Assembly (NCBI GenBank): GCA_041166745.1
Contig: JBEEGH010000002.1
Span: 151,837 to 215,836 of the forward strand
Source of the DNA: Acidimicrobiaceae bacterium
Lineage (GTDB): Bacteria > Actinomycetota > Acidimicrobiia > Acidimicrobiales > JACDCH01
Direction: 5' to 3'
Length of the DNA stretch: 64,000 nt
Positions 21,447 through 64,000 of this stretch are shown one piece after another. A program made the position numbers and the translations under genes. Position 1 is the stretch's first letter. Every line of letters begins with the position of its first letter. Under the pieces are notes generated by a model, which was given only the letters and a program-made list of their open reading frames with translations, was not told the origin of the DNA and searched no databases.

Positions 21447-21471
21447 CCGTCTCTTTTGTCCGCCGATTCGG

Positions 21472-21488
21472 CGCCGGATCAGATCCGG
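21472..21488. other. 17-bp perfect palindrome GCCGGATC-A-GATCCGGC between the poly-Ser gene stop and the adhesin-1 start
   Basis: Read directly from the sequence. It could be a protein-binding site or a small hairpin. There is no further support. Confidence 0.3.
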
Positions 21489-21496
21489 CTGTTCAA

Positions 21497-22339
21497 TCAG
21501 GTCTCCTTGGCGGAGTCCGGCTCCGCGTAACGCAGGATCAACACGCCCGTGACCACGAGGGCACCGCCGAGAAGAAGCAGCCGGCCGGGATCGAAGCCGG
21601 TGCGGGCCAGGCCCGTGCCGGCGACGGCGTTGGCTTGGCTCGTGTTCTCACCGAGCAAGGAGCCGGTGGACGAAGACGTCGAGCTGCCCGCGACCGACCC
21701 GGTCGACGAGCTGCTGAGCGAGCTGCGACTCGTCGACGACCCCAACACCGAGCTGCTGCTCGACGACGAGCTGCTGGACGACGACGAGCTGGACGACGAC
21801 GAGCTGCTGCTCGACGAGGAGCTGGACGACGACGAGGAGCTGGACGACGACGAGCTACCGCCGGGGTTGGGCCCGCAGGTGTGACTGAGGTTCATCACGA
21901 CCGGCGGATCGACATCGGGATCCGAGTACCCGTAGGCGTCGAGCAGCGTGTCGGCCGTCGCGGTGAAGAGGTACCAGCCCTTGCCGCTCTGCACGACCGT
22001 TCCGCCCGTGACCGCGCCGGCGGTGTCGAACGTGGCCTCGACCGAGGTGAGGTCGGGCGCGCCGTCAACCGGGAAGCTCGGCACCACGAAATGCCAGCCG
22101 TACGGCTCGCCCTCGGGGACGGTGACGCCGCTGCAACTGCCCTCGAAACCGGATGCATACGACGCGCCGTAGAACGAGCTCTTCAAGAACGTGTCGGCGC
22201 CGGGAGGCGGGGTGTTCTGCGGCGGCTTGGCCGCATGAGCAGCGTCGAGCGCGAAGCCTCCGAGGATGAGGAAGACACCGGCGCCCAGGACGCCCACGCC
22301 GATCTTGCGCGAGGGGCTGCGCCGCGCCTTCTTCTTCAT
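21497..22339 (-). CDS. LAXTG-anchored surface protein with about 36 consecutive Ser residues
   Basis: I chose the internal ATG at 22339. The signal peptide is MKKKARRSPSRKIGVGVLGAGVFLILGGFALDAAHA. A globular region of about 130 aa is followed by a poly-Ser run and an S/T/G-rich linker. LARTG is encoded at 21596-21610, then GFDPGRLLLLGGALVVTGVLILRY. It ends 51 nt upstream of adhesin 1 on the same strand. Confidence 0.75.
   Translation of the reverse strand: MKKKARRSPSRKIGVGVLGAGVFLILGGFALDAAHAAKPPQNTPPPGADTFLKSSFYGASYASGFEGSCSGVTVPEGEPYGWHFVVPSFPVDGAPDLTSVEATFDTAGAVTGGTVVQSGKGWYLFTATADTLLDAYGYSDPDVDPPVVMNLSHTCGPNPGGSSSSSSSSSSSSSSSSSSSSSSSSSSSSSSSSSSSSVLGSSTSRSSLSSSSTGSVAGSSTSSSTGSLLGENTSQANAVAGTGLARTGFDPGRLLLLGGALVVTGVLILRYAEPDSAKET
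21749..21856. repeat. Low-complexity poly-Ser coding tract (mixed AGC/TCG/TCC codons)
   Basis: The run of Ser codons was counted by subtraction from the 327-aa ORF translation (about 36 Ser). The 5' boundary was checked against the sequence at 21854-21862, and the 3' boundary follows from that count. Confidence 0.8.
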
Positions 22340-22682
22340 GTGCTGCGGGGCGCGCCGGCGCGGATGCCTGACGCTGCCTTCAGGGTCGGCCGCCTGCTCG
22401 CGTCGCGGTCCGAAGGCTCCGAGCCCGAGCACCACGAGAACGCTCATGGCCAGCAACATCGCCTTGCCGACTCGCCTCATCCCGCTGTTCCTCCTGTGAT
22501 CCAGTGCTGTCCGAGGTCAGGTGCTGCACCCCAACCCGTCTCTCGTTCGTTGTGGGACCGCCCCGCACAACCGGACCGATGGGTGCCTGACGTACTGTTC
22601 GACGCTTGGATGCCCTGGACCTGGCTGAGAACAGTACCTTTCAGCACAGAGCGTCGCCGCATTCGGCGGAGCCGCACGCTCC

Positions 22683-23930
22683 GTGACAGCCGGCGTCGGT
22701 GAGCGGGTGACGGTGACGCAGCGCTGGTGGCACCTGCTGCTGGTGTTGGGGGTCACCATCGCCGGCGCCATCCCCCGGGCCGCCCGCATCGCCGCCCAGG
22801 ACGGCTTCTCGTGGGACGAGTCCTATTACGTCCCCGCCGCTCGGGGCTACCTGCACGGCGACTTCACGAACAACTTCGAGCACCCGCCCCTCGGCAAGTG
22901 GGCCATCGCTGCCGGCATCCGCCTGGTGGGCGACCGACCGCTCGGCTGGCGGCTCGCCGCGCTCGTGGCCGGCATCCTCACCATCCCGCTCACCTGGCTG
23001 CTCGCCCGCCGCCTGTTCGGGTCGGTCTGGTGGGCCACGTTCGCCGCGTTCTTGGTGGCCACCGATGGTCTGCTCATCGTCCAGAGCCGCACCGCGCTCC
23101 TCGACAGCCTCCTGCCCCCGCTGGTCGTGGGGGCCGCGCTCTGCATCGTGCTGCACGTCGATCGCCGCGACGAGCGCCCGTTCTCGCCGTGGCTGATCGG
23201 GGCCGGCGTGCTGCTCGGCGCGGCGATGGCGGTGAAGTGGGAGGCCGGCGGTGCCCTCGTCGGCGTGCTCGTCGGGTTCGTGGTGATCGGGCGGCACGAC
23301 CGGCGCAAGGTCGGCGCCGCGTTGGTCGCGTTCCTCGCCGTGCCCGTGGTGGTCTACATGGCCAGCTACGCCGGACACTTCCAGCACGGGCTGAGCTTCA
23401 CCGACTTCTTCCGGCTCCAGAACAACATGCTCCGCTACCACCAGAATTTTCGACTCGATCATCCGAGCGACAGCTCGCCGTTGACGTGGCTGTGGCTGCA
23501 GCGCCCCGTCGCGTATGGCTCGCTCAATTCGTCCGACCGCATCTCCATCCACATGGCGTTGGGCAACCCCGCGTTGTGGTGGTCGTTCGTCGCGTCGCTG
23601 CCGTTGCTGCTGGTCGTGTGGTGGCGCGAGCGCGATCGCACCGTGGAGGTCGTGCTGTTCGCGTGGCTCGTGTTGCATCTCGTGTGGCTGGTCGTGCTGC
23701 GCCCCGGCTTCATCTACTACCTCACCCCGCTCGTGCCGTTCATGGCCATCGGGGTCACGTGGTCGGTGCGCTGGGTGGCGTTGCGCTGGCGGGTCGGTCG
23801 GCCACTGCCGATCGTGGTGGCCGCCGCCGTGCTCGTCGCCTTCCTGCTCTACCTACCCGTGTGGACCTACCACGACATGAGCCTGCGGCGGTTCCACTCC
23901 CTCATGCTCTTCGACGGCTGGGAGCCCTGA
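22683..23930 (+). CDS. PMT-family (GT39-like) dolichyl/polyprenyl-phosphate-mannose protein O-mannosyltransferase
   Basis: 415 aa and polytopic. The loop-1 signature reads FSWDESYYVPAARGYLHGDFTNNFEHPPLGKWAIAAG. LIVQSRTALLDS is also present, and the C-terminal half is membrane-embedded. It is divergent from the poly-Ser protein gene. Confidence 0.75.
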   Translation: MTAGVGERVTVTQRWWHLLLVLGVTIAGAIPRAARIAAQDGFSWDESYYVPAARGYLHGDFTNNFEHPPLGKWAIAAGIRLVGDRPLGWRLAALVAGILTIPLTWLLARRLFGSVWWATFAAFLVATDGLLIVQSRTALLDSLLPPLVVGAALCIVLHVDRRDERPFSPWLIGAGVLLGAAMAVKWEAGGALVGVLVGFVVIGRHDRRKVGAALVAFLAVPVVVYMASYAGHFQHGLSFTDFFRLQNNMLRYHQNFRLDHPSDSSPLTWLWLQRPVAYGSLNSSDRISIHMALGNPALWWSFVASLPLLLVVWWRERDRTVEVVLFAWLVLHLVWLVVLRPGFIYYLTPLVPFMAIGVTWSVRWVALRWRVGRPLPIVVAAAVLVAFLLYLPVWTYHDMSLRRFHSLMLFDGWEP

Positions 23931-25118
23931 CCCCGGGTACCGCCACGCGGCGCGCACGCCGAGCACCCCCGCGACGAGGAGCAGCACGTTGCGGCCGAGA
24001 GCGACGGCCAGCGCGTCGCCTTCGAGGTTGAAGTACTTGAAGTACATGGCCGGATAGAAGATGCCGCTCAGCAGCACCGAGCCCGCGAGGGCGAGCGCCG
24101 CGCCGCGCAGCAGGCGGGGCGCGAAGGCCAGGCCCGCGGCCATCGGCGCGACCAGCCAGACCAAGTACTGCGGCGAGAACACGCGCCCGACCGCGGTGAG
24201 CAGAACGAGGCTGCCGGCGATCACCACGCACAGGTGGCCACCGTCACCGCGCCGCACCCGGCGCAGCGTGGTGAGCGTGAGGTCGGCGAGCACGCCGAGC
24301 GCGGCGACGTTCGACAGCACCTTCAGTCGGTCGGCGAAGGTGCCCTGCACGTCGAACGCTCCGAACGCGCCGACGACCTTGATGTCGGAACCGAACAGCG
24401 ATTGCCACACCATCGCGAACGTGCCGTAGATGCTCTCGGCGTGCACGCCGCGATGCAGGTGGTACGCGGCGATGCTGTCGTACATCTCGGGCAGATCGAA
24501 CACGAACGGCGCGACGAACACGGCGACGACCAACGACGCGGCCGCGAACGGGCGCCAGCGCCGCGGGGCCACCGCCACGAGGCCGGGCAGGATCAGCACC
24601 GGCGTGAGCTTGGCGGCGATGCCGAGACCGAGCCACACCCCGCTCGCCGACCAGCGCCCGGCGGCGGCTCGTTCCAGCGACCACGCGATCGAGGCCGCGA
24701 CCACCAGGTCGAGCCGGGTGTAAGCGACAGGGCCGAGCAGCGGGATCAGCACCAGCCATGCACCGACGCCCCACCACGAGCCGGTCCGGCGGGCCAGCCG
24801 GTAGATGGCCACGAGCCCGAGCGCATCGAAGGCGATGCAGAGGATGATGAACTCGGTGCGGTACGTGAGCACGTCGACGGCGTACGGGGCGTTGGCGACC
24901 ACGAGCGCACCCGGCGGGTATTCCACGCCGAAGTCGCGGTACGGCCAGTGGTGAAAGTCCTGCATCTGGTTGCCCCAGACGATGTAGTTGGCCACATCGC
25001 TCGTCGGGTCCACGACCGATCCGGGTTGGCCGTACACCGTCGGATGGTCAGCGACGTAGCCGGCCACCAGGCGCGTGGCGGCAAAGGCCAGCAGCACGAT
25101 CAGCCACGGACGCCGCAC
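23853..25118 (-). CDS. GT87/DUF2029-like polyprenol-phosphate-sugar-dependent membrane glycosyltransferase
   Basis: 421 aa with about 10 TM segments. The N-terminal loop is YIVWGNQMQDFHHWPYRDFGVEYPPGALVV. The family call is by resemblance only. Its 3' end overlaps the convergent PMT gene by 78 nt. Confidence 0.6.
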   Translation of the reverse strand: MRRPWLIVLLAFAATRLVAGYVADHPTVYGQPGSVVDPTSDVANYIVWGNQMQDFHHWPYRDFGVEYPPGALVVANAPYAVDVLTYRTEFIILCIAFDALGLVAIYRLARRTGSWWGVGAWLVLIPLLGPVAYTRLDLVVAASIAWSLERAAAGRWSASGVWLGLGIAAKLTPVLILPGLVAVAPRRWRPFAAASLVVAVFVAPFVFDLPEMYDSIAAYHLHRGVHAESIYGTFAMVWQSLFGSDIKVVGAFGAFDVQGTFADRLKVLSNVAALGVLADLTLTTLRRVRRGDGGHLCVVIAGSLVLLTAVGRVFSPQYLVWLVAPMAAGLAFAPRLLRGAALALAGSVLLSGIFYPAMYFKYFNLEGDALAVALGRNVLLLVAGVLGVRAAWRYPGSGLPAVEEHEGVEPPQAHVVVGPHG

Positions 25119-25158
25119 TACGGCAGCGTACGGCGACCGCCGAAACGGGACCGTTCCG

Positions 25159-25194
25159 GAGGCAATAAGGAGCGTTACCGCTCCCTATTGCCTC
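25159..25194. terminator. Hairpin starting 5 nt after the adhesin-2 stop; conserved with 18465-18507
   Basis: Sequence is gaggcaataaggagcg-ttac-cgctccctattgcctc. The distal half (taccgc.ccctattgcctcgag.at) is shared with the hairpin downstream of paralog 1. Confidence 0.55.
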
Positions 25195-25199
25195 GAGTA

Positions 25200-28100
25200 T
25201 CAGGACGGACGGCGACGCAGGGCGGCGGGTGTGAGCTGCAAGGCGATGCCGATCGCGATGAACGCGAACCCGACGGCCACCCAATGCGACACGTCGAAGC
25301 CGGTGCGAGCGAGCAGTATCAACGGCAGCACGATGTCGATGTGCGCGGTGTCGGTGGCGCTGACCTGCTTGCCCAGCGGATCCGTAGCGGTGGCCGTGCC
25401 GAGGTTGTCGGTCGGTGAATCGCCGGTGATCGTGACCGTCTTGGTCAACGTCGCCGACGCACCAACCGCGAGCGATGCGATCGTGCCGATGTCGCCGAGC
25501 TTGTCGTCGGTCACCTTCACCGCGGTCAGCACACAGTCGCCGATGTTCTTCACGACATACGTGTAGGTCACGCTCTGCCCCGGCTCGACCGACACGGGGT
25601 TCGCTGTCTTGTCGATGGTGATGGCCGGATGGATGATGTCGACAGAGTGACTGGCTTCTCCGCCGGCGTCGCGACCGCGCACGTCCGTACCCGAGACCGT
25701 CGCGGTGTTGGGCAACGGGTCGGGATCGGATGCGGTCACGACGTGCGTGCAGTTGTACGTCCACGTCTCGCCGATCGCCAGCACGGAATCGCCGTTGCCG
25801 TCGTCGACGACGTGCAGGCTGTCGCCGTCACAGATCGGGTCGGAGAGATCGACGGTCACGAGATTGGCGAGGCCGTTGTTCTCCACGTCGATCACGTAGG
25901 TGATCGTGTCGCCGAGATGGGCGAACTGCGGTCCGTCCTTGATGATGCCGATGCTGATCGGGCAGAGCACGGTGATCTCCGCGGTGGAGGTGTTGTTCCC
26001 GGACTCACCCTCCGGCTCGTTCGACGACGAGACGTTGGCGGTGTTCGAGAGCACGCCGCAGTCGGCCACGTCGGTGAGCCCGGTCACGTGAATGGTGCGG
26101 GTGCTGCTCGGCGCCAGGTTGCCGAAGTCACAGGTGAGCAGCAGGCCGGTGATGCCGCAGTCCGCGCTGTCCTCGCTCCACGTGATACCCGCTGGCAGCG
26201 TGTCGGTCAGTTGCACGTCGTTCGACGTCTGCACGGCGTCGGTGCTCACCACGATGGTGAACGCCGCCGTGTCGCCGGCATCGATGATGTCGGTGTCGGC
26301 CGTCTTCAGCACCGACACGTCGCCACAGGTCACGTGCACCAGCACTTCGGCGCTGTCGTTGTTCGCCTGGGCCGACTGCCGCTCGTTCGTCGCGGTGATC
26401 GTCGCCTGGTTCACGATGTCGTCGCCGCAGTTCTCCGTCGACGTCGCGGCGCTGACGGTGACCGACGCGGTGGCGCCCTTGTTCATGTTGCCGAAGCTGC
26501 AATCGAGGTTGACGCCGCCGGTGATGAGGCAGTCGCCGTTGTTGCTCGACCACGTGAACCCGGCGGGCAGCGTGTCCGTCACGTGTACGTCTTGCGCAAT
26601 CGCGCCGTTGTCACCACCGACGTTCGCGGTGATCGTGAACGAAGCCGTCGCGCCCGCACTGATGGGGCTCGGGCCCGCCACCTTCGTCGAGGTCACGTCG
26701 GGGTACAGGATGTCGACCGACGCGTTGTCGGTGGACTCGACCGTCCGGCCGTAGTCGTCGGTGCCGGTGGCCTTGGCCGTGTTCACGAGCGGGTCGGTGT
26801 CCTGCATCGTGACCACGTGGCTGCACGAGTAATGCCACGTCTCGCCGACCTCGAGGAACCCGTTGCTGTTCGTGTCGCTGTTCGCCTGGAACACCGGGGC
26901 GGCGGCGCAGAGGGTGGTCTGCTCGTCGAGCGCGATGTTGTGCAGGCGCGGGCCGGTGGTGATCACGTTGAAGCTGTAGTTCACCGTGTCGCCCACGTTG
27001 GCCGTCGCGCCCGCGCTCTTGTCGAGCGCGATGTTGATCGCGTTGAGGATGTTCACGTAGTTGACGTTCACGGCTTGCTCGGCCGTGCCTTCGGTGACGG
27101 TCACGTTCACGTCGCCCGCCGACGCGCTGTTGGGCGGCGCCTGCGTCTCGGCCACGCGGTAGTTGCCGAGCTGGACGGGGCCGATCGTGCAGCCACTCGT
27201 CCCTCCGGCGATCGTGCACGTGGCCGCGTTGCCGCTGGGCCACAGGTGCGCGTCCTCGCCCGGGCTCTGGCGGGTGAGGTTGTTGTTCGCGTCCTTGTAC
27301 AGCGCGAACGCGGTGCCGTCGAGGATCGCAGCATTGCTGGGCGTCACCGTCTGGCCGTTGATGCCGTGCAGCACCTTGTTGATGTGCACGAAGCCGACCT
27401 TGGCCGGGTTCTCGTACGGCGTGGCGGTGAGGTCAACGGCCTGGCGGAAGCCGACCGTCACCTTCTGCGGTGCGCTCTCGTCGAGGTTGTAACCGGGTGG
27501 AGCCAAGGTCTCGGCGACCCAGTAGTCGGCCGGCGTCACGCTCGAGAACGTGCAAATGCCGAGGGCGTTGCTCGTGCAGGTGTAGATCGGGGCGCCGGTG
27601 GCATTGGCGTTGTCGAACAAACCGAACTGCGCGCCCGGGAGGGCGTGGCCGGCATCGTCGTTCTTCTTCAACTTCACCGAGCCGCACGTCGAGACGTCCA
27701 CGGTCGTCTGCGGCAGACGATCTTGCAGCGCGGCGTTGAACGATTCGCCGGACGAACGGCTGCGGATGTTCACATGGCCGAAGCCGGGGCAGGCGAGCAG
27801 CCCGCCGCCGATGGCGGTGTCGAACGCGACGAGGTCGACGGTGGCCTCACCGAACTCGCGCGAGCCGATGTTGCCGGTGGCGATGGTGTCGACGATCGTG
27901 CCGCTGTTGGTGTCGCCGGCCAACGAGCCGGCGGGAAGCAGCGACGTCGGAGACCAGTTCGACCCGTCCCACGAGAAGGTCGACAGGTCGGCGGTGCCAC
28001 CGCCGCCCGGGAAGTCGAACGTGATGAGGATGTCGTTGGGGCTGCGCCCCTCGAACGGACACTGATTGGTGATGTTGTTGCGGTTGAACTCGAAGTTGAT

Positions 28101-28526
28101 GTGCGCGTCACCGTTGCCGGCGGCGCGCACGAATGCGAGGTCGAGGAACGCGGTCGTCGGGTTGAGGTTGAGCGGGCCGGTGATGCGCGTGTTCACGTAG
28201 GCGCGCAGGATGTTGTTCTTGCCGGGGCTCGCCCCGCCGGTGTTGCAGGCGAAGTTCTCGGGCTCGTTCTCTTTCGACGAGCCCTGGTAGCCGCTGTCGA
28301 TGGAGTCGTCGGTCGCGGTGACGAGCGTGCCGGTGGCGTTGCTCCAGTCCATCGTCCCGGTGACCGCGGCCTGCTCGATCATGTTGCCGTCGTCCTCGAA
28401 GCCGCCGACGCTGCCGCTGCTGAGCGGCTGCCCGGTTGCTTGAAGTACGCCGATTGTGGCCAAAAGCACTGCAGTCATCGCCGCGACGCCGACCAGCCGC
28501 CGCGCACGCATCGTGCGCTTCTTCAT
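25200..28526 (-). CDS. Large LAXTG-anchored surface adhesin, paralog 2 (longer, with more DUF11-type repeats)
   Basis: I chose the internal ATG at 28526 (MKKRTMRARRLVGVAAMTAVLLATIGVLQATGQP). The N-terminal roughly 300 aa are collinear with paralog 1 (GSVGGFEDDGNM.E.AVTGTMDW.NATG...ILRAYVNTRITGP...FEFNRNNITN.CPF). LARTG is encoded at 25299-25313, followed by FDVSHWVAVGFAFIAIGIALQL and RRRPS. Confidence 0.85.
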   Translation of the reverse strand: MKKRTMRARRLVGVAAMTAVLLATIGVLQATGQPLSSGSVGGFEDDGNMIEQAAVTGTMDWSNATGTLVTATDDSIDSGYQGSSKENEPENFACNTGGASPGKNNILRAYVNTRITGPLNLNPTTAFLDLAFVRAAGNGDAHINFEFNRNNITNQCPFEGRSPNDILITFDFPGGGGTADLSTFSWDGSNWSPTSLLPAGSLAGDTNSGTIVDTIATGNIGSREFGEATVDLVAFDTAIGGGLLACPGFGHVNIRSRSSGESFNAALQDRLPQTTVDVSTCGSVKLKKNDDAGHALPGAQFGLFDNANATGAPIYTCTSNALGICTFSSVTPADYWVAETLAPPGYNLDESAPQKVTVGFRQAVDLTATPYENPAKVGFVHINKVLHGINGQTVTPSNAAILDGTAFALYKDANNNLTRQSPGEDAHLWPSGNAATCTIAGGTSGCTIGPVQLGNYRVAETQAPPNSASAGDVNVTVTEGTAEQAVNVNYVNILNAINIALDKSAGATANVGDTVNYSFNVITTGPRLHNIALDEQTTLCAAAPVFQANSDTNSNGFLEVGETWHYSCSHVVTMQDTDPLVNTAKATGTDDYGRTVESTDNASVDILYPDVTSTKVAGPSPISAGATASFTITANVGGDNGAIAQDVHVTDTLPAGFTWSSNNGDCLITGGVNLDCSFGNMNKGATASVTVSAATSTENCGDDIVNQATITATNERQSAQANNDSAEVLVHVTCGDVSVLKTADTDIIDAGDTAAFTIVVSTDAVQTSNDVQLTDTLPAGITWSEDSADCGITGLLLTCDFGNLAPSSTRTIHVTGLTDVADCGVLSNTANVSSSNEPEGESGNNTSTAEITVLCPISIGIIKDGPQFAHLGDTITYVIDVENNGLANLVTVDLSDPICDGDSLHVVDDGNGDSVLAIGETWTYNCTHVVTASDPDPLPNTATVSGTDVRGRDAGGEASHSVDIIHPAITIDKTANPVSVEPGQSVTYTYVVKNIGDCVLTAVKVTDDKLGDIGTIASLAVGASATLTKTVTITGDSPTDNLGTATATDPLGKQVSATDTAHIDIVLPLILLARTGFDVSHWVAVGFAFIAIGIALQLTPAALRRRPS

Positions 28527-28637
28527 CTGTTCCACCCGTCCGTTGACTGCTCTCACGCAGTGTGTTCTGGCCACTCACGTAGAGCAATCACTGACCGCCC
28601 AACTCTTCGCGGACGATTCGGACACAGAGGTCGAATC

Positions 28638-58359: not shown

Positions 58360-58821
58360 TTGGCCGAGGACCCCAACGCTCGTGACGAGGATCGAGGACG
58401 GCTGCTCGACGCCTTGAACGACGAGGACACGTGGACCGCGCCGCCCCGGCGCCCGCAGACCCGTTCTTTGGGCTCGCCGTCGAGCTTGCCTCGGGAGCAG
58501 ATCTCGCAGACCGATCACGGCCTGCTGCTCGAGGTCTACGACCTGGTCCGCAAGCTGGTCGCCGCCAACGACGCATCGGGCACCGATGGGGCCGATCGGC
58601 AGTACGAGCGGCTCAGTTCCGCGCTACTCCTCTTTGGGCGGCGCGTCGACGCCCGGCTGGGAACCTTCGAGGAGCGACTCGACGGCATCCAAGCCCACCC
58701 GGATGCGTTTCCCGGCGATCTCCTTCGAACGCTCGCACGGGAGCAGGCGCAACTGCGCGACGACGTGACGGCGATGAAAGACGCCATCGAGCAGCTTCGT
58801 CGCGGCGTGCTCGGTTTGTAG
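58360..58821 (+). CDS. Hypothetical protein with a helical C-terminal half
   Basis: 153-aa ORF ending 4 nt before the nucleotidyltransferase gene start. No motif was recognised and the start is uncertain. Confidence 0.4.
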   Translation: MAEDPNARDEDRGRLLDALNDEDTWTAPPRRPQTRSLGSPSSLPREQISQTDHGLLLEVYDLVRKLVAANDASGTDGADRQYERLSSALLLFGRRVDARLGTFEERLDGIQAHPDAFPGDLLRTLAREQAQLRDDVTAMKDAIEQLRRGVLGL

Positions 58822-58825
58822 ACGC

Positions 58826-59812
58826 GTGACGCGCAACTCCGGACGCTCGGTTGACAAGTCCGCGGTTGCAGACCGAGGGGCGGCGTTGTTCAACGCCGCA
58901 CTCGCCCGAGAGGTTCTCGCGGTGTTGCAACGTGCGGGAGTCGACGGTCTCCTGCTGAAGGGCCCGACGACATCGCAGCTGCTCGCCGAGCCTGGCCGCA
59001 CCCGCTCATACGGAGACGTTGACGTTCTCGTTCGGCTGGACGACCTCGTTGCGGCACAAGAGGTGCTTCGACACGCTGGCTTTCATTCGATGTGGGAAGG
59101 TGCGGCCCTCGACGAGCTGAGTGGTCACGCGGTCGACCTCGTGCGCGGTCGAGCGCAGGTAGACCTCCACTGGCGCATTGCCGGCATTCGCCTTCCACCG
59201 GAGCCGGCCTGGCAAGTGCTCTGGGCGCATCGCATTGAGCGCTCGATCCCCGGCGGGGGAACCGCGGTGAGCCTCGACGACCGAGCTGCGCTGTTGCTCA
59301 TCGGCCTGCACGCGGCCGCAGATCCGCATCAGCATCCGAAGGTGATGGACGATCTCACTCGAGCAGTGCGTCTCCACGGGATCGACCGCTGGCGTGAGGC
59401 CGCAAGGTTGGCACAGCAACTCGAGGCTTCTGACTTCTTGGCCAGCGGCCTGCTTCTCGTCGCTGGCGGCGACTCGGTCGTTGACGCCCTAGACCTTCGG
59501 AGGTTCGTCTCCACCGAATCTGTGCTCCGTTCGCACAATCCCCCGCCGCTGGCGCTCGGCATCGAACGACTCGTTCACACGCAAGGTGCGTGGCCCAAGG
59601 TGAAGATCCTCGCCCGCGAACTCGTGCCCACGCCCAGCGGCCTCAGGTACTGGCGACCGAACACGGGTCGCTCGAAATGGGCGCTCGCGCTCGCATACCT
59701 CCAACGGCCGGTGTTCCTTCTTCGATCCCTCCGCCCTGCACTCGCCGCGATACGCCGCGCCCGCCGGACGGCCGCCGCCTCACGCGGCTGCACGTCGTCG
59801 AGCCCCTCTTAG
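58826..59812 (+). CDS. Uncharacterised nucleotidyltransferase family protein (NTP_transf_5-like)
   Basis: 328 aa. Sequence reads LQRAGVDGLLLKGPTTSQLL...RSYGDVDVLVRLDDLVAAQEVLRHAGF...VDLHWRI. The GxxDxD nucleotidyltransferase core and overall pattern match PF14907-type proteins as I recall them. Confidence 0.65.
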   Translation: MTRNSGRSVDKSAVADRGAALFNAALAREVLAVLQRAGVDGLLLKGPTTSQLLAEPGRTRSYGDVDVLVRLDDLVAAQEVLRHAGFHSMWEGAALDELSGHAVDLVRGRAQVDLHWRIAGIRLPPEPAWQVLWAHRIERSIPGGGTAVSLDDRAALLLIGLHAAADPHQHPKVMDDLTRAVRLHGIDRWREAARLAQQLEASDFLASGLLLVAGGDSVVDALDLRRFVSTESVLRSHNPPPLALGIERLVHTQGAWPKVKILARELVPTPSGLRYWRPNTGRSKWALALAYLQRPVFLLRSLRPALAAIRRARRTAAASRGCTSSSPS

Positions 59813-61275
59813 GACCACTCGGCAGGAACGATCTGAGGCGTCGTTAGTCCTTGGATGCGCCGCGCCGCGGAGGTCAAGGCGGTGGCGCGGCTCGCCAGGC
59901 CCATCGTCGCGTCAGCCCCGGCGACTACGGGAGACGCGACACGACCGCTGGCGTCGACGAGAACAGCCGACGGCGTGCCGCGGATTCCGTATGCCCTCCG
60001 TGTGAGCGAGCCGTTGTCGACCCCGATCATCGAGAAGCCAACAGCTCGGTTAGCCTCGACAGGACCGTGCGACACCACGAACAAGCTCGGTCCGTCCTCG
60101 GTCTGCATCTGCTCCCACTCACGCAACCGCGGGAGCAAGGCGCGGCAGAACTCGCACGTCGGGCTCCAGAAAACAAGCAACACCAGGCGACCGCGGAGCG
60201 CCAGGAGCGAGAGCTGTTGTTCTTCACCGTTCACATTCTCAATCGCGATGAGCGGCGCTTCAGCTCCCACCGCGGGGGTCATGCCGACGCCGTCGCCGGC
60301 TTCCAACCCCGCGACTGCGCCTTCAACGAGGTGGCGTATTGCATGCGCGCCGGCCGCGGTCGAGCCGACTCGTCCCGACGGAAAGATCAACACGGCACTA
60401 GGCGTTGCGAGTGCTGCATAGGCGGCCGCCACCTCGTCGCCCCCCTGAAGAAGCACTGGTGCAAGTTCGAACTCTGCGACCTTCCGTTGGTTCTCCTCGA
60501 CGGAGCCGCTACTGACGAGGGCAATCGATAAGACGTCGCCATAAGTCGACTGCCAGTCGGCCAACTCTGGGAGTAACGCACCACAGGGCTCACAGTCCGG
60601 GTCGATGAAAGCGAGCAGAAGCGGTCGGTCGGCGCGCAGCAGCGAGGCCAGATTCGTGTCGGCGCCGGCAAGGTCGGGCAACACGAACGCCGGTGCCCGT
60701 GTCCCGATGGGCAACCCGAACGCGCCCTCTATGAACGGCATCACCTGGGACGGTCGTCGAAGGAGGAAATGAACGACGGCGAGGCCTTCGACGCCGATCG
60801 TCGCTAGCAGCACAACGACCACGGTTCGGGGTGTCTCGTGCGAGAGCGCATAGTCAGCGACGGCCGTGCCGACTCCTGGCGCCTTCGGGCCGAACACGAC
60901 CACCACAAACCCCGCGATCAAAACGAGATTTCGGACAATGGACCGACCGCTGATCGGCGCTTGGCTGAGCGTGCCGAAACAGTTGCAGTTTGGGCGTTTG
61001 CCTTTCCGCAGGTTCACGGCAAGGAGGACCGTGAAGGCGCTCGTCACGGCGAATCCACTTATCGCCGCTGCGCGCGCTGAGCTCTCGAACAGAAGCCCTA
61101 GGACGATCGCCAACTCGATGAACGGGAGGCTGGTTGCGACGGCGCCAGCCATGCGCGTCGGTACGCCCAGGCCGGCCGCGGCCTGCCGAGTGGCACCACG
61201 ATCGGCGAGCTTCGCGAGTGCAGCCGTGGCAAACACTGTCGCGGCCACCACACGAATTACGACAACTGCGGCCAC
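59809..61275 (-). CDS. MauE/DoxX-like membrane domain fused to two thioredoxin-fold (TlpA/MauD-like) CxxC domains
   Basis: 488 aa. The N-terminus has four TM helices ending in KRPNCNCFG, a MauE-type motif. Domain 2 is LLAFIDPDCEPCGALLPELADW. Domain 3 is LLVFWSPTCEFCRALLPRLREW. Confidence 0.8.
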   Translation of the reverse strand: MAAVVVIRVVAATVFATAALAKLADRGATRQAAAGLGVPTRMAGAVATSLPFIELAIVLGLLFESSARAAAISGFAVTSAFTVLLAVNLRKGKRPNCNCFGTLSQAPISGRSIVRNLVLIAGFVVVVFGPKAPGVGTAVADYALSHETPRTVVVVLLATIGVEGLAVVHFLLRRPSQVMPFIEGAFGLPIGTRAPAFVLPDLAGADTNLASLLRADRPLLLAFIDPDCEPCGALLPELADWQSTYGDVLSIALVSSGSVEENQRKVAEFELAPVLLQGGDEVAAAYAALATPSAVLIFPSGRVGSTAAGAHAIRHLVEGAVAGLEAGDGVGMTPAVGAEAPLIAIENVNGEEQQLSLLALRGRLVLLVFWSPTCEFCRALLPRLREWEQMQTEDGPSLFVVSHGPVEANRAVGFSMIGVDNGSLTRRAYGIRGTPSAVLVDASGRVASPVVAGADATMGLASRATALTSAARRIQGLTTPQIVPAEWS

Positions 61276-61285
61276 CGAAATGAAG

Positions 61286-62032
61286 TTACCCGGCCAAGCG
61301 GTCGACGATCATCGACGCGGTCTCCCTCGCATCGCCGCGCGCCCCGCTGTAGGACGTCGCCGACGACACGAGGGTGCGCAGCGCGCGAAGCGTCACCGCA
61401 GGGCGGCTCCGGATGGTCAGGCTATGAGCCAACACGGCCATGAGGGCGTCCGCCGGCCGGATGCGTTGTGGCCGCCAGCTCGCGCCAGATTCGAACGACG
61501 TCAGCACCACCATGTGCGCCTTCACTGCGTCAATCCCCACTTTGAACCCGTCGTACGGATCCGCAAAATACAACGGATCTCGAAACAGCAGTGGCCTCGG
61601 GAACGGATCGATGCGGCCATCGGCGCCAACTACCGCATGTTCGTCTGAGTAGTACGTCCCGCCTGCCTCGACGAGCGCGGCTACAAGCGTCGTCTTTCCT
61701 GAGTGCGATGCCCCAGGGATGACCACCGCCCGGTTTGCGAACGCGACAACCCCAGCGTGGACCATCGCATGGTCGGTTGCGACCTCGACGAGCTGCGTTT
61801 GGAGATCCTCGAAGAACGCGTGCCGCAGCGACTCAGGGCTCTCGGCTGAGGACAGCACGACCCCGTTCCGTCGCAACGAATGAAGCGAACCGCTAGTTAC
61901 GACTGAGTACGAGACGTCCGACACGTGGCAATCCGCGGCGGCGCGCCGAAGATTTCGGCCGAGGGTTGTTAGAACGGGCTCGGGACCGAGCAGCGCGATG
62001 CGGAGAGGACCAACTTGGACGACGTGCTCCAC
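61286..62032 (-). CDS. HPr-kinase-related P-loop protein
   Basis: 248 aa. VHAGVVAFANRAVVIPGASHSGKTTLVAALVEAGGTYYSDEHAVV matches the HprK C-terminal domain P-loop context. It starts 10 nt after the upstream stop. Confidence 0.7.
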   Translation of the reverse strand: MEHVVQVGPLRIALLGPEPVLTTLGRNLRRAAADCHVSDVSYSVVTSGSLHSLRRNGVVLSSAESPESLRHAFFEDLQTQLVEVATDHAMVHAGVVAFANRAVVIPGASHSGKTTLVAALVEAGGTYYSDEHAVVGADGRIDPFPRPLLFRDPLYFADPYDGFKVGIDAVKAHMVVLTSFESGASWRPQRIRPADALMAVLAHSLTIRSRPAVTLRALRTLVSSATSYSGARGDARETASMIVDRLAG

Positions 62033-62042
62033 CGCACCAGAG

Positions 62043-62693
62043 CTAGGCAGGTGCCTTGCACTTACCGGAACCGTTCACGCCGTTGAGGCTGCAGCACAGG
62101 TGTGCGTCTGCCACCGTGACGCCGTCGGCGATGCAAGCAACGCATGTTCCAGTGTCAGGGCTTGGGACGTTGCACCGGCAGTTGCCTGTCCCTGCCGTGT
62201 TCTCGCCTGTACACGGAGAGTTGACCCGATTGCAGGTGCCAGCGCATGTAGCCGCGGCTGCGGGTGTTGGGGCGACGATGGTAGTAATGACCGGAATCGT
62301 GGCTGCCGCCACGCCCATCCGAATGAGGAGCTGCCGCCGGGACAACCGCCGCACTCCCTCTTGTGATTGCTCGGCATCGGACGGCGGGCCCAACAGTAGG
62401 GAGGCGGCGTCCAGCAGCGCGATGGCTTCGACAACGATCTCCAGGGGAAGGTCGCTCTTGGAGTCTCGGGACACCTCCTGTCGGAGCGCTTCGATATCGC
62501 GTGACCCGTCGCAAAGGCGCCACACGGCGGCCGTGGTCTCGTTCAAGTGGTGAACGGTGTCATCTCTCTCGTCGTAAACCACGAGCTCGTCGTCCATCGG
62601 TTCGACCAGAAGCCGTTCTGATCGAGCAGTCGGCCGGTCCGCAGTCATACGCGCATCGTACACCGCGGCATCTTTGCCCTGCACCAGGGGCAT
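62043..62693 (-). CDS. PqqD-like (RRE) domain protein fused to a twin-arginine/TM segment and a C-terminal 10-Cys module
   Basis: 216 aa, with ATG at 62693 preceded by GGGAG. The PqqD-like core is LLVEPMDDELVVYDERDDTVHHLNETTAAVWRLCDGSRDIEALRQEV...IVVEAIALLDAASLL. This is followed by RRLSRRQLLIRMGVAAATIPVITTIVAPTPAAAA. The C-terminal module is TCAGTCNRVNSPCTGENTAGTGNCRCNVPSPDTGTCVACIADGVTVADAHLCCSLNGVNGSGKCKAPA. Confidence 0.7.
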   Translation of the reverse strand: MPLVQGKDAAVYDARMTADRPTARSERLLVEPMDDELVVYDERDDTVHHLNETTAAVWRLCDGSRDIEALRQEVSRDSKSDLPLEIVVEAIALLDAASLLLGPPSDAEQSQEGVRRLSRRQLLIRMGVAAATIPVITTIVAPTPAAAATCAGTCNRVNSPCTGENTAGTGNCRCNVPSPDTGTCVACIADGVTVADAHLCCSLNGVNGSGKCKAPA

Positions 62694-62787
62694 ACAGACG
62701 CTCCCTGCGGATCAGATGGCGAATGACTAGCCCATCGTGACTGGGACGTCATATCCCGTAGAGGTCATTTTGCCGATGTGCCTACAG

Positions 62788-62833
62788 CCGCTCTTGCGGA
62801 ACGTCGAACCCATGAGCAATCCCGCAAGAGCGG
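62788..62833. other. 12-bp perfect stem (CCGCTCTTGCGG / CCGCAAGAGCGG) with a 22-nt loop in the divergent intergenic region upstream of the WxL-like gene
   Basis: Read directly. The left arm is 62788-62799 and the right arm is 62822-62833. It ends 28 nt before the ATG at 62862. Confidence 0.4.
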
Positions 62834-62861
62834 GTTCGATCCCAGCCCAAAGGTGTTTCAC

Positions 62862-63395
62862 ATGAACAAGAAAATGCTCGGAGCGGGCCTGGTCATCGCC
62901 ACCTCGCTTCTCGCCAGTATCAGCCCAGCTTTCGGCGACATCGGCGTCACCGTCGTTCCGGGGACTCGTGCCGCGAGCGCCACCGACCTCGTACTTCCGG
63001 AGGTGAACTCGGAACACGTGTCGCGCTACACGTCCGGCGCCGTGACACTTTGGGCCGACGACAGCACAGGATCCGGCGCAGGGTGGGCCGTCACCGTTCA
63101 GGCTGACGACTTCACCGGTCCCGGAGCCATTCCGGCCGCAAACCTGTCCGCCTATTGGGCAGCCCCGGTCGCGACCATTGCCGGCCAGCCCGTGGACGCG
63201 GACGGCGGGCCTGACATTCAGAGCAGTCTTGCTCTGGGGCCGCTCGACCAGCCGCGGACGCTCATGCAGGCCTTCGAGGGCTTCGGCATGGGGACCTACT
63301 CGCAGCAAGTCGGTCTTCTGCTCAAGGTGCCAGCCGACACATTGGCCGGCAGCTACACGACGGAGTTGACCGTCAGCATCACCGCCGCACCGTAA
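62862..63395 (+). CDS. Secreted WxL-domain-like surface protein
   Basis: I chose the internal ATG at 62862. The signal peptide is MNKKMLGAGLVIATSLLASISPAFG. Also present are GAGWAVTVQADDFTG and the C-terminal GSYTTELTVSITAAP, which resemble WxL-domain proteins. Confidence 0.55.
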   Translation: MNKKMLGAGLVIATSLLASISPAFGDIGVTVVPGTRAASATDLVLPEVNSEHVSRYTSGAVTLWADDSTGSGAGWAVTVQADDFTGPGAIPAANLSAYWAAPVATIAGQPVDADGGPDIQSSLALGPLDQPRTLMQAFEGFGMGTYSQQVGLLLKVPADTLAGSYTTELTVSITAAP

Positions 63396-63410
63396 ACAGA
63401 TGTCACTCTC

Positions 63411-63443
63411 AGGAGCGGGTCGCGCGAAGCGCGGCCCGCTCCT
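63411..63443 (+). terminator. GC-rich hairpin after the WxL-like gene
   Basis: Sequence is aggagcggg-tcgcgcgaagcgcgg-cccgctcct followed by ctaattct. It begins 16 nt after the stop at 63395. Confidence 0.55.
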
Positions 63444-63466
63444 CTAATTCTGGAAGGCTTTCGTCA

Positions 63467-64000
63467 ATGTCTCGCATCGGTCGTGCGCTGATCTGCACCG
63501 TCGTGATGGTGCTCGCGCTCGGAGCGACGGCGGCAACGCCGTCGCTTGCCACGACCGGTCAGGCCGAGGCACCGAAGCTCACAATCTCACCTGCGGACGG
63601 CAGCGGTTCCTTCTTCACCGTGACGGGGGCGCCAGGTGAGACAAAGCCGCTAACTGCGAGCCTGCGCAACCCGGGAACACAGTCGGTCCCCGCCCGCACC
63701 TATGCCGCCGACGCCTTCACCGTCGTGAATGGTGGTCTCGGCGCTCGAACGTGGGGCGATGCGAAGTCAGCGCCCACGACATGGCTCGACTACCCCGATG
63801 AGAACCTCAACCTCGGCGCGGGCGAGGCCGTGCAACGCAACTTCAATGTGGCGATTCCTGCCGACGCGAGCGCTGGCCAGCACATCGCCGCCTTGGTGAT
63901 CGAGAACCAGGACCTATTCAGCACCGGATCGGACGCCCCGGCGCAGCAGCGCCTGCGGCAGGTGATCGCGGTGCTGGTGACCGTTTCCGGTCCGCTTGCA
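63467..64000 (+). CDS. Secreted DUF916-like cell-surface protein, partial (runs off window end)
   Basis: My own translation from ATG at 63467 (preceded by GGAAGG) gives MSRIGRALICTVVMVLALGATAATPSLATTGQAEAPKLTISPADGSGSFFTVTGAPGETKPLTASLRNPGTQSVPARTYAADAFTVVNGG... It is open to position 64000. The pattern resembles the DUF916 partners found in WxL loci. Confidence 0.5.
   Translation, partial: MSRIGRALICTVVMVLALGATAATPSLATTGQAEAPKLTISPADGSGSFFTVTGAPGETKPLTASLRNPGTQSVPARTYAADAFTVVNGGLGARTWGDAKSAPTTWLDYPDENLNLGAGEAVQRNFNVAIPADASAGQHIAALVIENQDLFSTGSDAPAQQRLRQVIAVLVTVSGPLA

Follow-up and report, generated by a model that had tools for sequence, protein, structure and literature searches.

A conserved family of PqqD-fused, cysteine-rich bacterial proteins: candidate exported peptide precursors with a built-in recognition element

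Introduction

What might be produced by adjoining genes for a PqqD domain fused to a cysteine-rich module, a P-loop kinase, a MauE-thioredoxin protein and a nucleotidyltransferase? The question is raised by a 64,000-nucleotide stretch of DNA (the window) from an Acidimicrobiaceae MAG, whose host is an uncultured soil actinobacterium. In lasso peptide clusters, a PqqD-type RiPP recognition element (RRE), an HPr-kinase homolog (PadeK, PsmK) and a nucleotidyltransferase (PsmN) are encoded together; the kinase homolog phosphorylates the precursor and the nucleotidyltransferase adds a hexose onto the phosphate. The residue targeted by lasso kinases is a C-terminal serine. Below we describe the locus and its relatives, and weigh what the fused protein may be.

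Organization and conservation of the locus

Three genes lie on the minus strand with gaps of 10 nt: gene A (62043..62693; longest ORF 216 aa), the putative precursor; gene B (61286..62032; 248 aa), a predicted P-loop kinase of the PEPCK/HprK fold; and gene C (59809..61275; 488 aa), a MauE protein with two thioredoxin-like domains. On the plus strand, gene E (58360..58821; 153 aa), a hypothetical protein, sits 4 nt upstream of gene D (58826..59812; 328 aa), an NTP_transf_5 nucleotidyltransferase of the pol-beta type, and the convergent stops of C and D overlap by 4 nt (59809..59812). These ORFs, spacings and overlap are as reported in an initial annotation made from the sequence alone, and its domain assignments for A to D were upheld by Pfam and NCBIfam profile searches. 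GC1/GC2/GC3 profiles are of the coding type in all five ORFs, including gene E (GC3 0.81, GC2 0.46), which gave no family match in the Pfam and NCBIfam scans and had no homolog at any of the loci retrieved for comparison. Gene E is probably lineage-specific and therefore likely outside the core set.

The module is embedded in a polysaccharide locus of >35 kb. As had been noted before, no lasso cyclase, radical-SAM enzyme, YcaO or protease was matched, either among the window ORFs scanned or among gene calls reaching 8.6 kb beyond the window; the Asn-synthetase-like cyclase (C) and transglutaminase-like protease (B2) were both absent from the same ORFs (Pfam) and gene calls. Likewise, no transporter or core-modifying enzyme had a family match among the window ORFs scanned.

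Three other actinobacterial-type lineages retain the four-gene set of fusion, kinase, MauE-thioredoxin protein and NTP_transf_5 protein. L088/L089 and L090/L091 preserve the order A, B, C, a C homolog lies beside A and B in L088, L090 and L007, and D homologs are convergent in L007 and L090; all four genes are present at L007, a locus in a Solirubrobacterales MAG. The recurrence of this gene order in independent metagenomes, where the proteins are 46-54% identical, and in this MAG puts the co-occurrence of the set far beyond chance. The conserved set first envisaged had five members; four of them are borne out, whereas the 153-aa gene E is without a counterpart elsewhere. A polysaccharide or cell-surface context is shared by the window, L007 and L001-L004, across phyla, which strengthens the proposed tie to the polysaccharide locus.

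Architecture of gene A and its family

Gene A (NCBI MEY2420255.1) carries the annotation 'hypothetical'. Judged from alignment with homologs, its real start is probably M16 at nt 62648, which would give a protein of 201 aa. The PqqD/RRE domain (62379..62648, minus strand) scores 29.5 bits for PF05402, above the gathering score (23.4), confirming the earlier PqqD call. In the AlphaFold2 (AF2) model, residues 1-90 (pLDDT >90) form three strands and then three helices, a winged-helix fold. The best PDB folds found with Foldseek were the lasso B1 RREs TbiB1 (5v1u) and TfuB1 (6jx3) (TMt 0.72-0.75), both solved as leader-bound lasso B1 proteins, followed by PqqD itself (5sxy; TMt range over the three 0.60-0.75). 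This domain presumably stays in the cytoplasm.

A search of 50%-identity clusters with a profile of the A family returned 2,115 cluster representatives at E<=1e-30, a number that rises to 6,547 at E<=1e-10. The shared layout consists of a PqqD/RRE domain, a twin-arginine signal-like segment that closes with APTPA-x-A, and a tail; across 32 aligned members, leader-like conservation contrasts with hypervariability of the tail. In sequence and gene context, A shows the general pattern of a RiPP precursor, namely a conserved leader, a hypervariable core and adjoining candidate RRE-dependent enzymes. The family is large and unnamed, and in the literature consulted we found no description of a precursor in which an RRE is fused ahead of a putative export signal and Cys-rich cargo. 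That separate PqqD and Cys-rich genes were merely joined by an assembly or frameshift artefact is refuted by the same single-ORF layout in >100 homologs at 90% clustering and in thousands of 50% clusters, and by an identical gene A in two JGI assemblies and one NCBI MAG; we assign this explanation a negligible probability. The PqqD-Cys-module fusion is real and conserved throughout a large family.

The initial annotation described A correctly as a PqqD domain plus a Cys module and overlooked what lies between them, the twin-arginine signal-like segment (LSRRQLLIRMGVAAATIPVITTIVAPTPAAA; 62253..62345, minus strand). No other part of the family is as strongly conserved: its invariant alignment columns are R104, R105, P119, A126-A130 and A132. 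The segment is internal, not N-terminal. Set beside the Tat pattern of S/T-R-R-x-F/L-L, a moderately hydrophobic h-region and an AxA c-region, it reads LSRRQLL ... APTPAAA: the invariant RR is followed by a hydrophobic stretch of about 20 residues and, directly after that, by a near-invariant A-x-A, such that APTPA-x-A resembles an AxA signal-peptidase site, with 27 residues from RR to A132 of this site. Of 77 homologs, 35 have a Met two residues ahead of RR, the place it would take in a free-standing Tat signal. Pfam TAT_signal matched the same segment in Chloroflexi homologs (L005, L006; 23.8 bits, gathering score 22.7) and gave no match to window protein A at E<=0.1. In the AF2 model the hydrophobic segment is not one long helix, and residues 121-125 (TTIVA), flanked by the invariant Pro and by APTPA, are predicted as a beta-strand with a pLDDT of about 76, above its surroundings. 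Sequence-specific conservation of the hydrophobic segment is atypical of a simple signal peptide; a membrane anchor, or a motif that serves recognition alone, could explain it equally well.

The tail, the putative cargo or 'core' (62046..62252, minus strand; 69 aa, 10 Cys), is the hypervariable part of the family, although all ten cysteines are invariant in the two closest homologs (P0002 and P0003). Cys counts per tail, mostly 6 or 8, are even in 121 family members, odd in 6 and zero in 13. A knottin-like spacing, C-x6-C-x5-6-CC-x3-C-xn-C, is common among homolog tails, and there is a weak Omega-toxin match in L006; in the AF2 model the tail of A has a pLDDT <55. Family tails seldom end in Ser, no conserved Ser or Thr stands out in them, and some are of low complexity or almost missing.

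These features bear on whether the tail is released. A might instead be an uncleaved single-pass signal-anchor protein, with its PqqD domain on the cytoplasmic side and a Cys-rich ectodomain stabilised by C. Rather than yielding a free peptide, it would then serve as scaffold, sensor or regulator in the assembly of polysaccharide or the cell surface. The hydrophobic segment after RR would fit an N-in, C-out topology, its conservation far exceeds that of usual cleaved signal peptides, and both the low-complexity or nearly absent tails and the position of the module within polysaccharide loci (window, L007, L001-L004) accord with such a role. Set against this, a near-invariant A-x-A comes directly after the hydrophobic stretch, the knottin-like tails are hypervariable in a manner typical of released peptides, and AF2 gives no single long helix, so that we consider an anchored protein unlikely.

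Kinase and nucleotidyltransferase

Gene B carries a P-loop, GASHSGKT, at residue 107, and its AF2 model (pLDDT 89) retrieved PEPCK (E ~5e-6) and HprK/P C-terminal domains (E 2e-4 to 2e-3) in Foldseek. From motif and modelled fold, B is predicted to be an HprK/P-like (PEPCK-like) P-loop kinase. Among protein families it is nearest to TIGR04352 (HprK-related kinase A; E=2e-16), which was again the best match for kinases adjoining homologous fusions; Pfam Hpr_kinase_C (PF07475) did not match B and gave only 14 bits for homolog P0283. The earlier kinase assignment is thus backed by TIGR04352 and by the fold, but not by PF07475 or by a score above the family cutoff. Gene D scores 70.2 bits for PF14907 NTP_transf_5 (gathering score 31.2) and has an acidic GDVDVLV motif.

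That PqqD, kinase and nucleotidyltransferase form a recognised but uncharacterised trio, as had been suggested earlier, proved correct: besides occurring in lasso clusters, the trio is catalogued by NCBIfam as the 'HPr-rel-A system'. TIGR04352 and TIGR04353 (PqqD family peptide chaperone; E=1.6e-4) are the best NCBIfam matches for B and A, albeit with scores far under the curated cutoffs (59.9 vs 200 and 22.6 vs 35 bits, respectively), and the TIGR04353 profile has only 74 positions, whereas A adds the signal-like segment and cargo. With the lasso tailoring set the module shares the same three protein families, an RRE fold nearest TbiB1 and TfuB1 and a kinase of the PEPCK/HprK fold; the likeness to PadeK, PsmK and PsmN is one of protein family and, for the kinase, of fold. 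It differs in that no cyclase or B2 protease was matched (ORFs scanned and 8.6 kb beyond), the RRE is fused to the presumed substrate itself, a twin-arginine signal-like segment and Cys-rich cargo are present, and tails rarely end in Ser.

In order to place both enzymes in the wider family, we counted neighbours at 21 well-flanked fusion loci. A kinase homolog adjoins 13 of the 21 fusions and is absent near 8, a D homolog adjoins 11 and is absent near 10, and at least one of the two lies within 2.5 kb in 16/21. Kinase and nucleotidyltransferase are therefore frequent but accessory. Near-identical tails occur with both enzymes, with one or with neither, which implies that the pathway is not defined by B and D, the part once given to them; tails are alike at loci with and without the two, and since the enzymes are absent from many loci while tails stay unchanged, their substrate may not be the tail of A. 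Phosphorylation or nucleotidylation of the tail would be pure analogy.

One possibility is that B and D act not on A but on a polysaccharide, a lipid carrier or another envelope protein, their adjacency reflecting a shared role in the envelope. Their absence from many fusion loci with the same tails, the >35 kb polysaccharide locus around the window module and the lack of a standout conserved Ser or Thr in the tails would all suit this explanation. However, the genes are tightly spaced (10 nt in the window, and 4-nt kinase/fusion overlaps at L001 and L004), at least one enzyme is close by in most well-flanked fusions, and the same three families accompany one another both in lasso clusters and in the 'HPr-rel-A system', whose PqqD member is a peptide chaperone; we regard action elsewhere as unlikely.

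A MauE-thioredoxin protein and the case for export

Gene C encodes a MauE part (PF07291; 60886..61275), a first thioredoxin-like domain (60367..60708) and a second (59935..60270), all on the minus strand, with a fifth transmembrane segment between MauE and the thioredoxin-like domains. Profile scores uphold the MauE and AhpC-TSA assignments (79.6 bits against a threshold of 27, and 65.9 bits), with Thioredoxin_2 at 43.7 bits and MauD (TIGR02661) at 62.2 bits (E=4e-17), below its 188.6-bit cutoff. A CNC motif at residue 97 falls in the TM3-TM4 loop of the MauE part, and the thioredoxin-fold CxxC motifs are CEPC at residue 228 in the first thioredoxin-like domain and CEFC at residue 374 in the second.

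[quoted passage not shown] Like the MauE/MauD-MauA system, our locus places MauE and a MauD-like thioredoxin beside a small, putatively disulfide-dense polypeptide with a twin-arginine signal-like segment; it differs in having no mau genes, MauG or TTQ chemistry, and in uniting MauE with two thioredoxin domains in one protein whose MauD score is below cutoff. VKOR-thioredoxin fusions and DsbB/DsbA share with C a quinone-linked membrane oxidase joined to thioredoxin-fold domains via an extra transmembrane segment, whereas here the oxidase is of the MauE family with a CXC motif, the thioredoxin domains are two in tandem, and the operon holds one specific candidate substrate. A 2026 preprint draws the analogy of MauE with DsbB and VKOR and reports that MauE is a DsbB-like disulfide generator, complementing an E. 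coli dsbB mutant via a periplasmic CXC active site. By sequence and analogy, C may thus be a fused DsbB-like/DsbA-like oxidative-folding protein. The dedicated disulfide partner proposed in the initial annotation gains from this result, which also supports export and then oxidative folding of the A tail.

A positive-inside count over 34 MauE-Trx proteins (8.2 vs 1.35 K+R) predicts that the CxC loop and thioredoxin domains are cytoplasmic, in conflict with the periplasmic CXC implied by the preprint's dsbB complementation. MauE-Trx proteins occur near fusions only in actinobacterial-type versions of the set. A further MauE-Trx gene, found at an Acidobacteriia locus, comes immediately after the gene for a 33-Cys protein that bears an RR signal.

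A further alternative makes A a conventional cytoplasmic RiPP, in which the RRE reads the RR-hydrophobic-APTPA region purely as a leader motif and the product exits by another route. Consistent with it are the RRE fold, whose nearest solved structures are lasso B1 proteins with bound leader, the strand that AF2 predicts at residues 121-125, and the high sequence conservation of the motif. We find it very unlikely, given TAT_signal matches in homologs and no transporter, protease or core-modifying family match among the window ORFs scanned. Even Cys counts and a dedicated, presumably extracytoplasmic MauE-Trx oxidase also argue for export of the tail.

The pairing of such oxidases with Cys-rich precursors has a precedent. 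Among decRiPPter candidate RiPP families of Streptomyces, mauE (plus mauD) lies beside precursors with at least 8 Cys, on which it was proposed to act (PMC7794033). MauE/MauD beside small, Cys-rich predicted precursors is common to both, those families being uncharacterised and likened here by description; the term PqqD does not appear in the main text of that paper. The combination had been put forward as new: this may hold for the fusion design, and does not for MauE/MauD with precursors of at least 8 Cys, already flagged there.

Proposed maturation of the precursor

From the observed domain identities, conserved architecture, gene linkage and genomic context of the module, and from the published function of MauE, we infer how A may be exported, cleaved and docked in cis, and what B and D may do chemically, as follows. 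A would have three parts: a cytoplasmic N-terminal RRE, a Tat-type signal-like segment with an AxA-like site, and the 69-residue, 10-Cys cargo. The cargo would be exported, probably cleaved after APTPA-x-A, and oxidatively folded outside the membrane by C. The built-in RRE would act in cis, docking a short conserved strand of its own signal/leader (candidate docking peptide PVITTIVAPTPA) and/or recruiting partner enzymes; the one pointer to leader binding is the AF2 strand at residues 121-125. Optionally, and by analogy with PadeK/PsmK and PsmN, B would phosphorylate a hydroxyl of the precursor and D would add a group onto the phosphate. What results would be a cysteine-knot mini-protein, either secreted or associated with the surface, and linked to the envelope polysaccharide locus that houses the module. 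Overall, we see about an even chance that A is such a leader-guided, Tat-like-routed precursor of a knottin-type peptide, with a cis RRE, oxidative folding by C and optional phospho- or nucleotidyl-type tailoring.

Each element has parallels. Bufferins are signal-peptide-bearing RiPPs and a precedent for an exported RiPP precursor, borosins such as OphMA are a precedent for a precursor fused to its own maturation domain, and TorD, DmsD and NapD are cytoplasmic chaperones that bind a Tat signal before export. To our knowledge, none of these systems combines all three features or puts a PqqD domain upstream of the signal.

More specifically, the fused PqqD domain might be a built-in signal-peptide chaperone on the P-x-VTSIV-APTPA strand, holding the knottin-type precursor export-incompetent until partners act on it or release it; this partner role would fall to the kinase and nucleotidyltransferase at loci that carry them, and to other enzymes, DUF4915 for example, at the rest. 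We think this improbable as it stands. If true, it would mark out Tat-routed ribosomal peptides with an RRE in cis as a class not recognised before, and the peptide might be fastened to the envelope polysaccharide of the surrounding locus through a phosphodiester-linked decoration, should it carry one.

Organization of the locus and gene calls

All five open reading frames proposed in the initial annotation lie in the window as described: A (62043..62693, minus strand), a PqqD-type recognition element followed by a twin-arginine signal-like segment and a Cys-rich tail; B (61286..62032, minus), an HprK-related kinase; C (59809..61275, minus), a MauE fusion with two thioredoxin-like (Trx) domains; D (58826..59812, plus), an NTP_transf_5 nucleotidyltransferase; and E (58360..58821, plus), a 153-aa ORF. 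Gaps of 10 nt separate A from B and B from C, E and D are 4 nt apart, and the stops of C and D converge with a 4-nt overlap. The codon-position GC profile is of the coding type in all five ORFs. The window falls within a JGI metagenome contig of 994 kb and is nearly identical to an NCBI Acidimicrobiaceae MAG, where A, B, C and E are annotated as ‘hypothetical protein’ (MEY2420251, MEY2420253-55) and where the sequence of D was absent among our protein matches. JGI gene calls at 12786..13592 of the corresponding locus (L092) break D into a fragment of 155 aa plus an ORF of 109 aa on the opposite strand, and also truncate the 5′ ends of B and C; the full Pfam match of D is borne by the intact 328-aa ORF. 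As a five-gene set the proposal stood only in part: A to D are conserved, but E gave no family match in Pfam or NCBIfam and was ruled out as a fifth member, its homologs being absent from every related locus.

A conserved fusion of recognition element, signal-like segment and tail

The PqqD domain of A scored above the gathering threshold in our Pfam/NCBIfam check. Through a search of 5.8 billion proteins, we were able to collect more than 100 homolog clusters of A (140-220 aa), which share one order of PqqD domain, short linker, twin-arginine segment, APTPA-x-A and tail. Searching 1.84 billion cluster representatives with a profile, we obtained 2,115 matches at E<=1e-30; relaxing the cutoff to E<=1e-10 raised the number to 6,547. 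The 150 top-scoring ones are nearly all 125-325 aa long and cover most of the profile. Scanning metagenomes with the single pattern [VI][TA][ST][IV][VL]APTPA gave 309 confirmed loci, mainly from soil, while a narrower genome scan for related loci gave 3. In all, the family comprises thousands of sequence clusters and spans Actinomycetota and Chloroflexota.

The tail shows no sequence conservation across the family. Its Cys count is even in 121 of 140 parseable tails (mainly 6 or 8), odd in 6 and zero in 13, and many tails display the inhibitor cystine knot spacing C-x6-C-x5-6-CC-x3-C-xn-C, starting directly after ‘APTPA-Q-A’. Ten Cys are invariant between the window tail and those of the two closest relatives. 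RiPP recognition elements (RREs) are familiar on their own or within modifying enzymes. To a frameshift or misassembly as the source of the fusion we give practically no credence, as the same fusion recurs in more than 100 homolog clusters. The shared architecture, the even-Cys tails and the conserved Cys of the window tail thus mark the fusion as a conserved design. In A the recognition element is joined to its own presumed substrate, immediately ahead of an export signal-like segment. The family is unnamed; our literature search found no published account of it and no paper in which a precursor with a signal carries a fused PqqD domain.

The twin-arginine segment and its possible binding in cis

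The initial annotation overlooked the middle segment of A, which is the most conserved portion of the family. Its twin arginine is invariant, usually in the form S/T-R-R-x-L/M-hydrophobic, and is followed by ~20 moderately hydrophobic residues that include an invariant Pro, then by the near-invariant ‘APTPA-x-A’. P119, T128 and P129 of A are invariant, and A132 in the A-x-A-like site follows RR at a distance of 27 residues. Pfam TAT_signal scores above gathering on the corresponding segment of two Chloroflexi homologs; the Pfam scan gave no TAT_signal match in A of the window. The invariant RR, the RR-AxA distance and the TAT_signal matches agree with a Tat-type signal peptide, and we regard this Tat-like segment as central to the module. 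The same hydrophobic stretch might instead hold A uncleaved in the membrane as a scaffold or sensor, for which the unusually strong conservation of this stretch could be cited and against which the near-invariant A-x-A-like site speaks; we consider this unlikely, if deserving attention.

Met occurs two positions ahead of RR in 35 of 77 distinct homologs, resembling a free-standing ‘M-S/T/N-R-R’ signal. In the window (~62343..62369, minus strand) the residue two ahead of RR is a Leu encoded by TTG, with GAGGGAG 8 nt upstream, and an internal start there would yield a free-standing signal-plus-cargo protein. We rejected such a start as unconserved: a Shine-Dalgarno-like sequence accompanies the Met/Leu position in 8 of 77 homologs, and the position is Tyr in L007, a Solirubrobacterales locus. 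Given the rarity of Shine-Dalgarno-like sequences at this site, the Met is better explained as left over from a free-standing signal peptide than as a second start.

In the AF2 model of A, built with the family alignment, the PqqD domain reaches pLDDT >90, RRQLLIRM folds as a short helix, a beta-strand (pLDDT about 76) covers TTIVA at residues 121-125, past the invariant Pro and ahead of APTPA, and the tail is modelled without confidence. Among solved structures, TbiB1 and TfuB1, lasso B1 RREs crystallized with their leader peptides, come nearest in fold, and PqqD follows. RREs take up the leader as an extra strand. The model therefore hints that the PqqD domain of A (residues 1-90) may bind its own signal/leader segment, with the peptide PVITTIVAPTPAAA as candidate ligand. 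A purely cytoplasmic RiPP, in which the stretch would serve only as the leader motif read by the RRE, would share these features; given the even Cys counts and the TAT_signal matches in homologs, we consider it quite improbable.

The MauE-thioredoxin fusion as putative folding partner

Pfam and NCBIfam confirmed the MauE and two thioredoxin-like domains of C, whose sequence carries the motifs CNC, CEPC and CEFC and which belongs to a large set of MauE-(Trx)2-4 fusions. A March 2026 preprint reports that MauE homologs substitute for DsbB in E. coli and that the MauE active site is a periplasmic CXC between transmembrane segments 3 and 4, with a quinone link proposed by docking. Based on this substitution, we favour reading C as an oxidative-folding machine that fuses DsbB-like and DsbA-like parts. 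Our positive-inside count for C and 34 homologs (P0367-P0486) gave 8.2 versus 1.35 K+R, which would place the CXC loop and Trx domains in the cytoplasm and conflicts with the dsbB complementation. As the latter is experimental we gave it priority, and set aside cytoplasm-facing Trx domains and oxidative folding ahead of Tat export.

Among the compared fusion loci, MauE-Trx was seen only in four actinobacterial-type groups, which may reflect a need of monoderms for a dedicated oxidase where diderms use periplasmic Dsb proteins. In an Acidobacteriia MAG (L096 2067..3065), a 332-aa, 33-Cys protein with a weak PLA2G12 match and an RR-containing signal after a ~40-aa extension is encoded directly upstream of a MauE-Trx gene; two other MauE-Trx loci examined had no comparable Cys-rich neighbour.

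Kinase and nucleotidyltransferase as frequent accessories

The HprK-like assignment of B holds at the level of the fold. Its P-loop reads GASHSGKT, and its AF2 model (pLDDT 89) resembles PEP carboxykinases and the HprK/P C-terminal domain, on which basis a PEPCK/HprK P-loop kinase fold is assigned; Pfam gave no match, and the best family, TIGR04352 (HprK-related kinase A, E=2e-16), fell far short of its curated cutoff. B has more than 2,700 homologs, also in Acidobacteriota and Gemmatimonadota MAGs, some of which (e.g. P0248, P0283, P0350) carry the newer Pfam family PF27840 in precomputed annotation. D was confirmed by Pfam as a pol-beta-type NTP_transf_5 protein with a GDVDVLV motif. A sequence search of the PDB gave no significant match for B or D.

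The two closest relatives (51-56% identity) retain the operon A, B, C, with a convergent D on one contig. L007 has the kinase, a MauE with one thioredoxin domain, the fusion, whose Cys-rich tail is 125 aa long, and a nucleotidyltransferase in convergent orientation; the 4-nt stop overlap of the D-type gene is there with the fusion gene (10756..10759), and in the window with the MauE-Trx gene (59809..59812). Of the 71 non-redundant fusions, 21 are flanked by 2 kb or more in both directions; neighbours of these include the kinase in 13, the nucleotidyltransferase in 11, both in 8, DUF4915 instead in 2, and none of these in 3. Near-identical knottin-type tails occur with both enzymes, with one and with neither, and our comparison revealed no tail difference that follows their presence. 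B and D, first proposed as integral, are thus frequent yet optional neighbours, accessories rather than defining enzymes. They might modify something other than A, as the unchanged tails would allow; considering how often they adjoin the fusion, we find this distinctly unlikely.

At L005 10648..11826 and L006 10573..11757 (Chloroflexi), the fusion precedes a DUF4915 (PF16261) gene and, after it, one for a beta-helix/PMP-repeat protein, with neither kinase nor nucleotidyltransferase; a literature search on DUF4915 found nothing. The fusions of L029, L040, L042 and L015, a subgroup likewise without either enzyme, adjoin several small unknown genes and a Ser/Thr kinase of the Hanks type that bears zinc ribbons.

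Comparison with known systems

PqqD, kinase and ‘uncharacterized nucleotidyltransferase’ are found together in lasso-peptide clusters, where the C-terminal Ser of the precursor is phosphorylated by an HPr-kinase homolog and the nucleotidyltransferase PsmN then adds a hexose to the phosphate. The module shares this tailoring trio, but neither of the enzymes that define a lasso cluster, cyclase and B2 protease, gave a match among the window ORFs scanned or in gene calls covering 8.6 kb outside it, and a hidden lasso cluster was rejected on this ground. Radical-SAM enzyme and YcaO likewise gave no match among the ORFs scanned, in line with the initial annotation. In its MauE/MauD logic the module also resembles the maturation of the methylamine dehydrogenase small subunit, yet C scores under the curated MauD cutoff, as do A and B under those of the HPr-rel-A equivalogs. 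We therefore consider the module akin to leader-guided peptide maturation while belonging to none of the lasso, HPr-rel-A and MauD systems. For Streptomyces, a 2020 paper (PMC7794033) put forward MauE beside precursors having 8 or more Cys as a candidate RiPP class, uncharacterised; the term PqqD does not occur in its main text. No description of the present system was found in the literature searched (kinase family, PF14907, PqqD or RRE with twin-arginine).

Envelope context

The supposed adjacent polysaccharide locus in fact encloses the module, as polysaccharide genes flank it in and past the window. At 35-58 kb the window encodes a Wzc-like ATPase, a Wzy_C protein, several glycosyltransferases, an acyltransferase, methyltransferases, a GT47 enzyme and a Wzm/Wzt ABC transporter, and further along the contig, outside the window, are genes for WxL proteins, a DUF4012-Glycos_transf_4 protein and a Bac_transf priming transferase. 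Wzy_C-TPR and Wzz/GNVR genes flank L007, and L001-L004 adjoin Wza-like, Wzc-like and BBP2_2 genes.

The remainder of the window holds further envelope functions. Wzy_C-TPR recurs in a second gene at 9094..10827, genes for an ATPase and a platform protein of the type IV pilus type are found at 14.1-17.2 kb, and two SpaA/DUF11/DUF7507 surface proteins (954 and 1,124 aa) surround a PMT O-mannosyltransferase and a GT87 glycosyltransferase at 18582..28574. Divergent from A (62778..64000, plus strand, extending beyond the window; L092 8094..9736) are genes for a 205-aa WxL-domain protein and, beside it, a protein with a WxL-interacting-protein peptidoglycan-binding domain. WxL-type surface-complex clusters are chiefly known in Firmicutes; the present one is in an Acidimicrobiaceae MAG.

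Many soil fusion loci have giant secreted proteins nearby instead, with C-terminal Peptidase_C25 in 18 and CarboxypepD_reg/DUF4214 in 10, and TPR proteins lie near the fusion in 16. The Peptidase_C25 (gingipain-type) giants, ~700-2,150 aa where complete, are encoded just downstream of the fusion/nucleotidyltransferase in 18 loci, including L001, L017, L019, L024, L026, L029, L040, L042, L057, L061, L062 and L083; CarboxypepD_reg/DUF4214 giants occur on both sides of the fusion in other loci. As knottins often inhibit proteases, it is conceivable that knottin tail and Peptidase_C25 form a protease-inhibitor pair.

Proposed route and significance

With the architecture, conservation, linkage, folds and context established here, and MauE function and lasso precedents taken from the literature, we propose the following route, whose export, cleavage, cis docking and B/D substrates we infer. 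The cargo of A would leave via the twin-arginine-type signal and probably be freed at the AxA-like site, with C folding it oxidatively. Remaining inside, the N-terminal RRE would act in cis on the leader/signal and/or recruit B and D; where present, these may attach first a phosphate and then a group linked through it. We hold this overall picture of an RRE-guided, exported, C-folded precursor with B/D tailoring with middling confidence, and the specific chemistry with much less. The self-contained route to an extracytoplasmic disulfide-knotted peptide put forward initially survives in outline, with gene E removed and B and D not integral.

In all, the module is real, conserved and widespread, is of the leader-/RRE-guided ribosomal peptide kind, and was not found described in the literature searched. 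If the proposed route is true, it would define a new precursor logic overlooked by current genome mining for RiPPs and secreted peptides and a natural source of bacterial knottin-like peptides. MauE-thioredoxin fusions would gain a concrete substrate class, and the long-orphan pair of HprK-related kinase and NTP_transf_5 a candidate substrate, with a possible tie of peptide maturation to cell-envelope polysaccharide biology.
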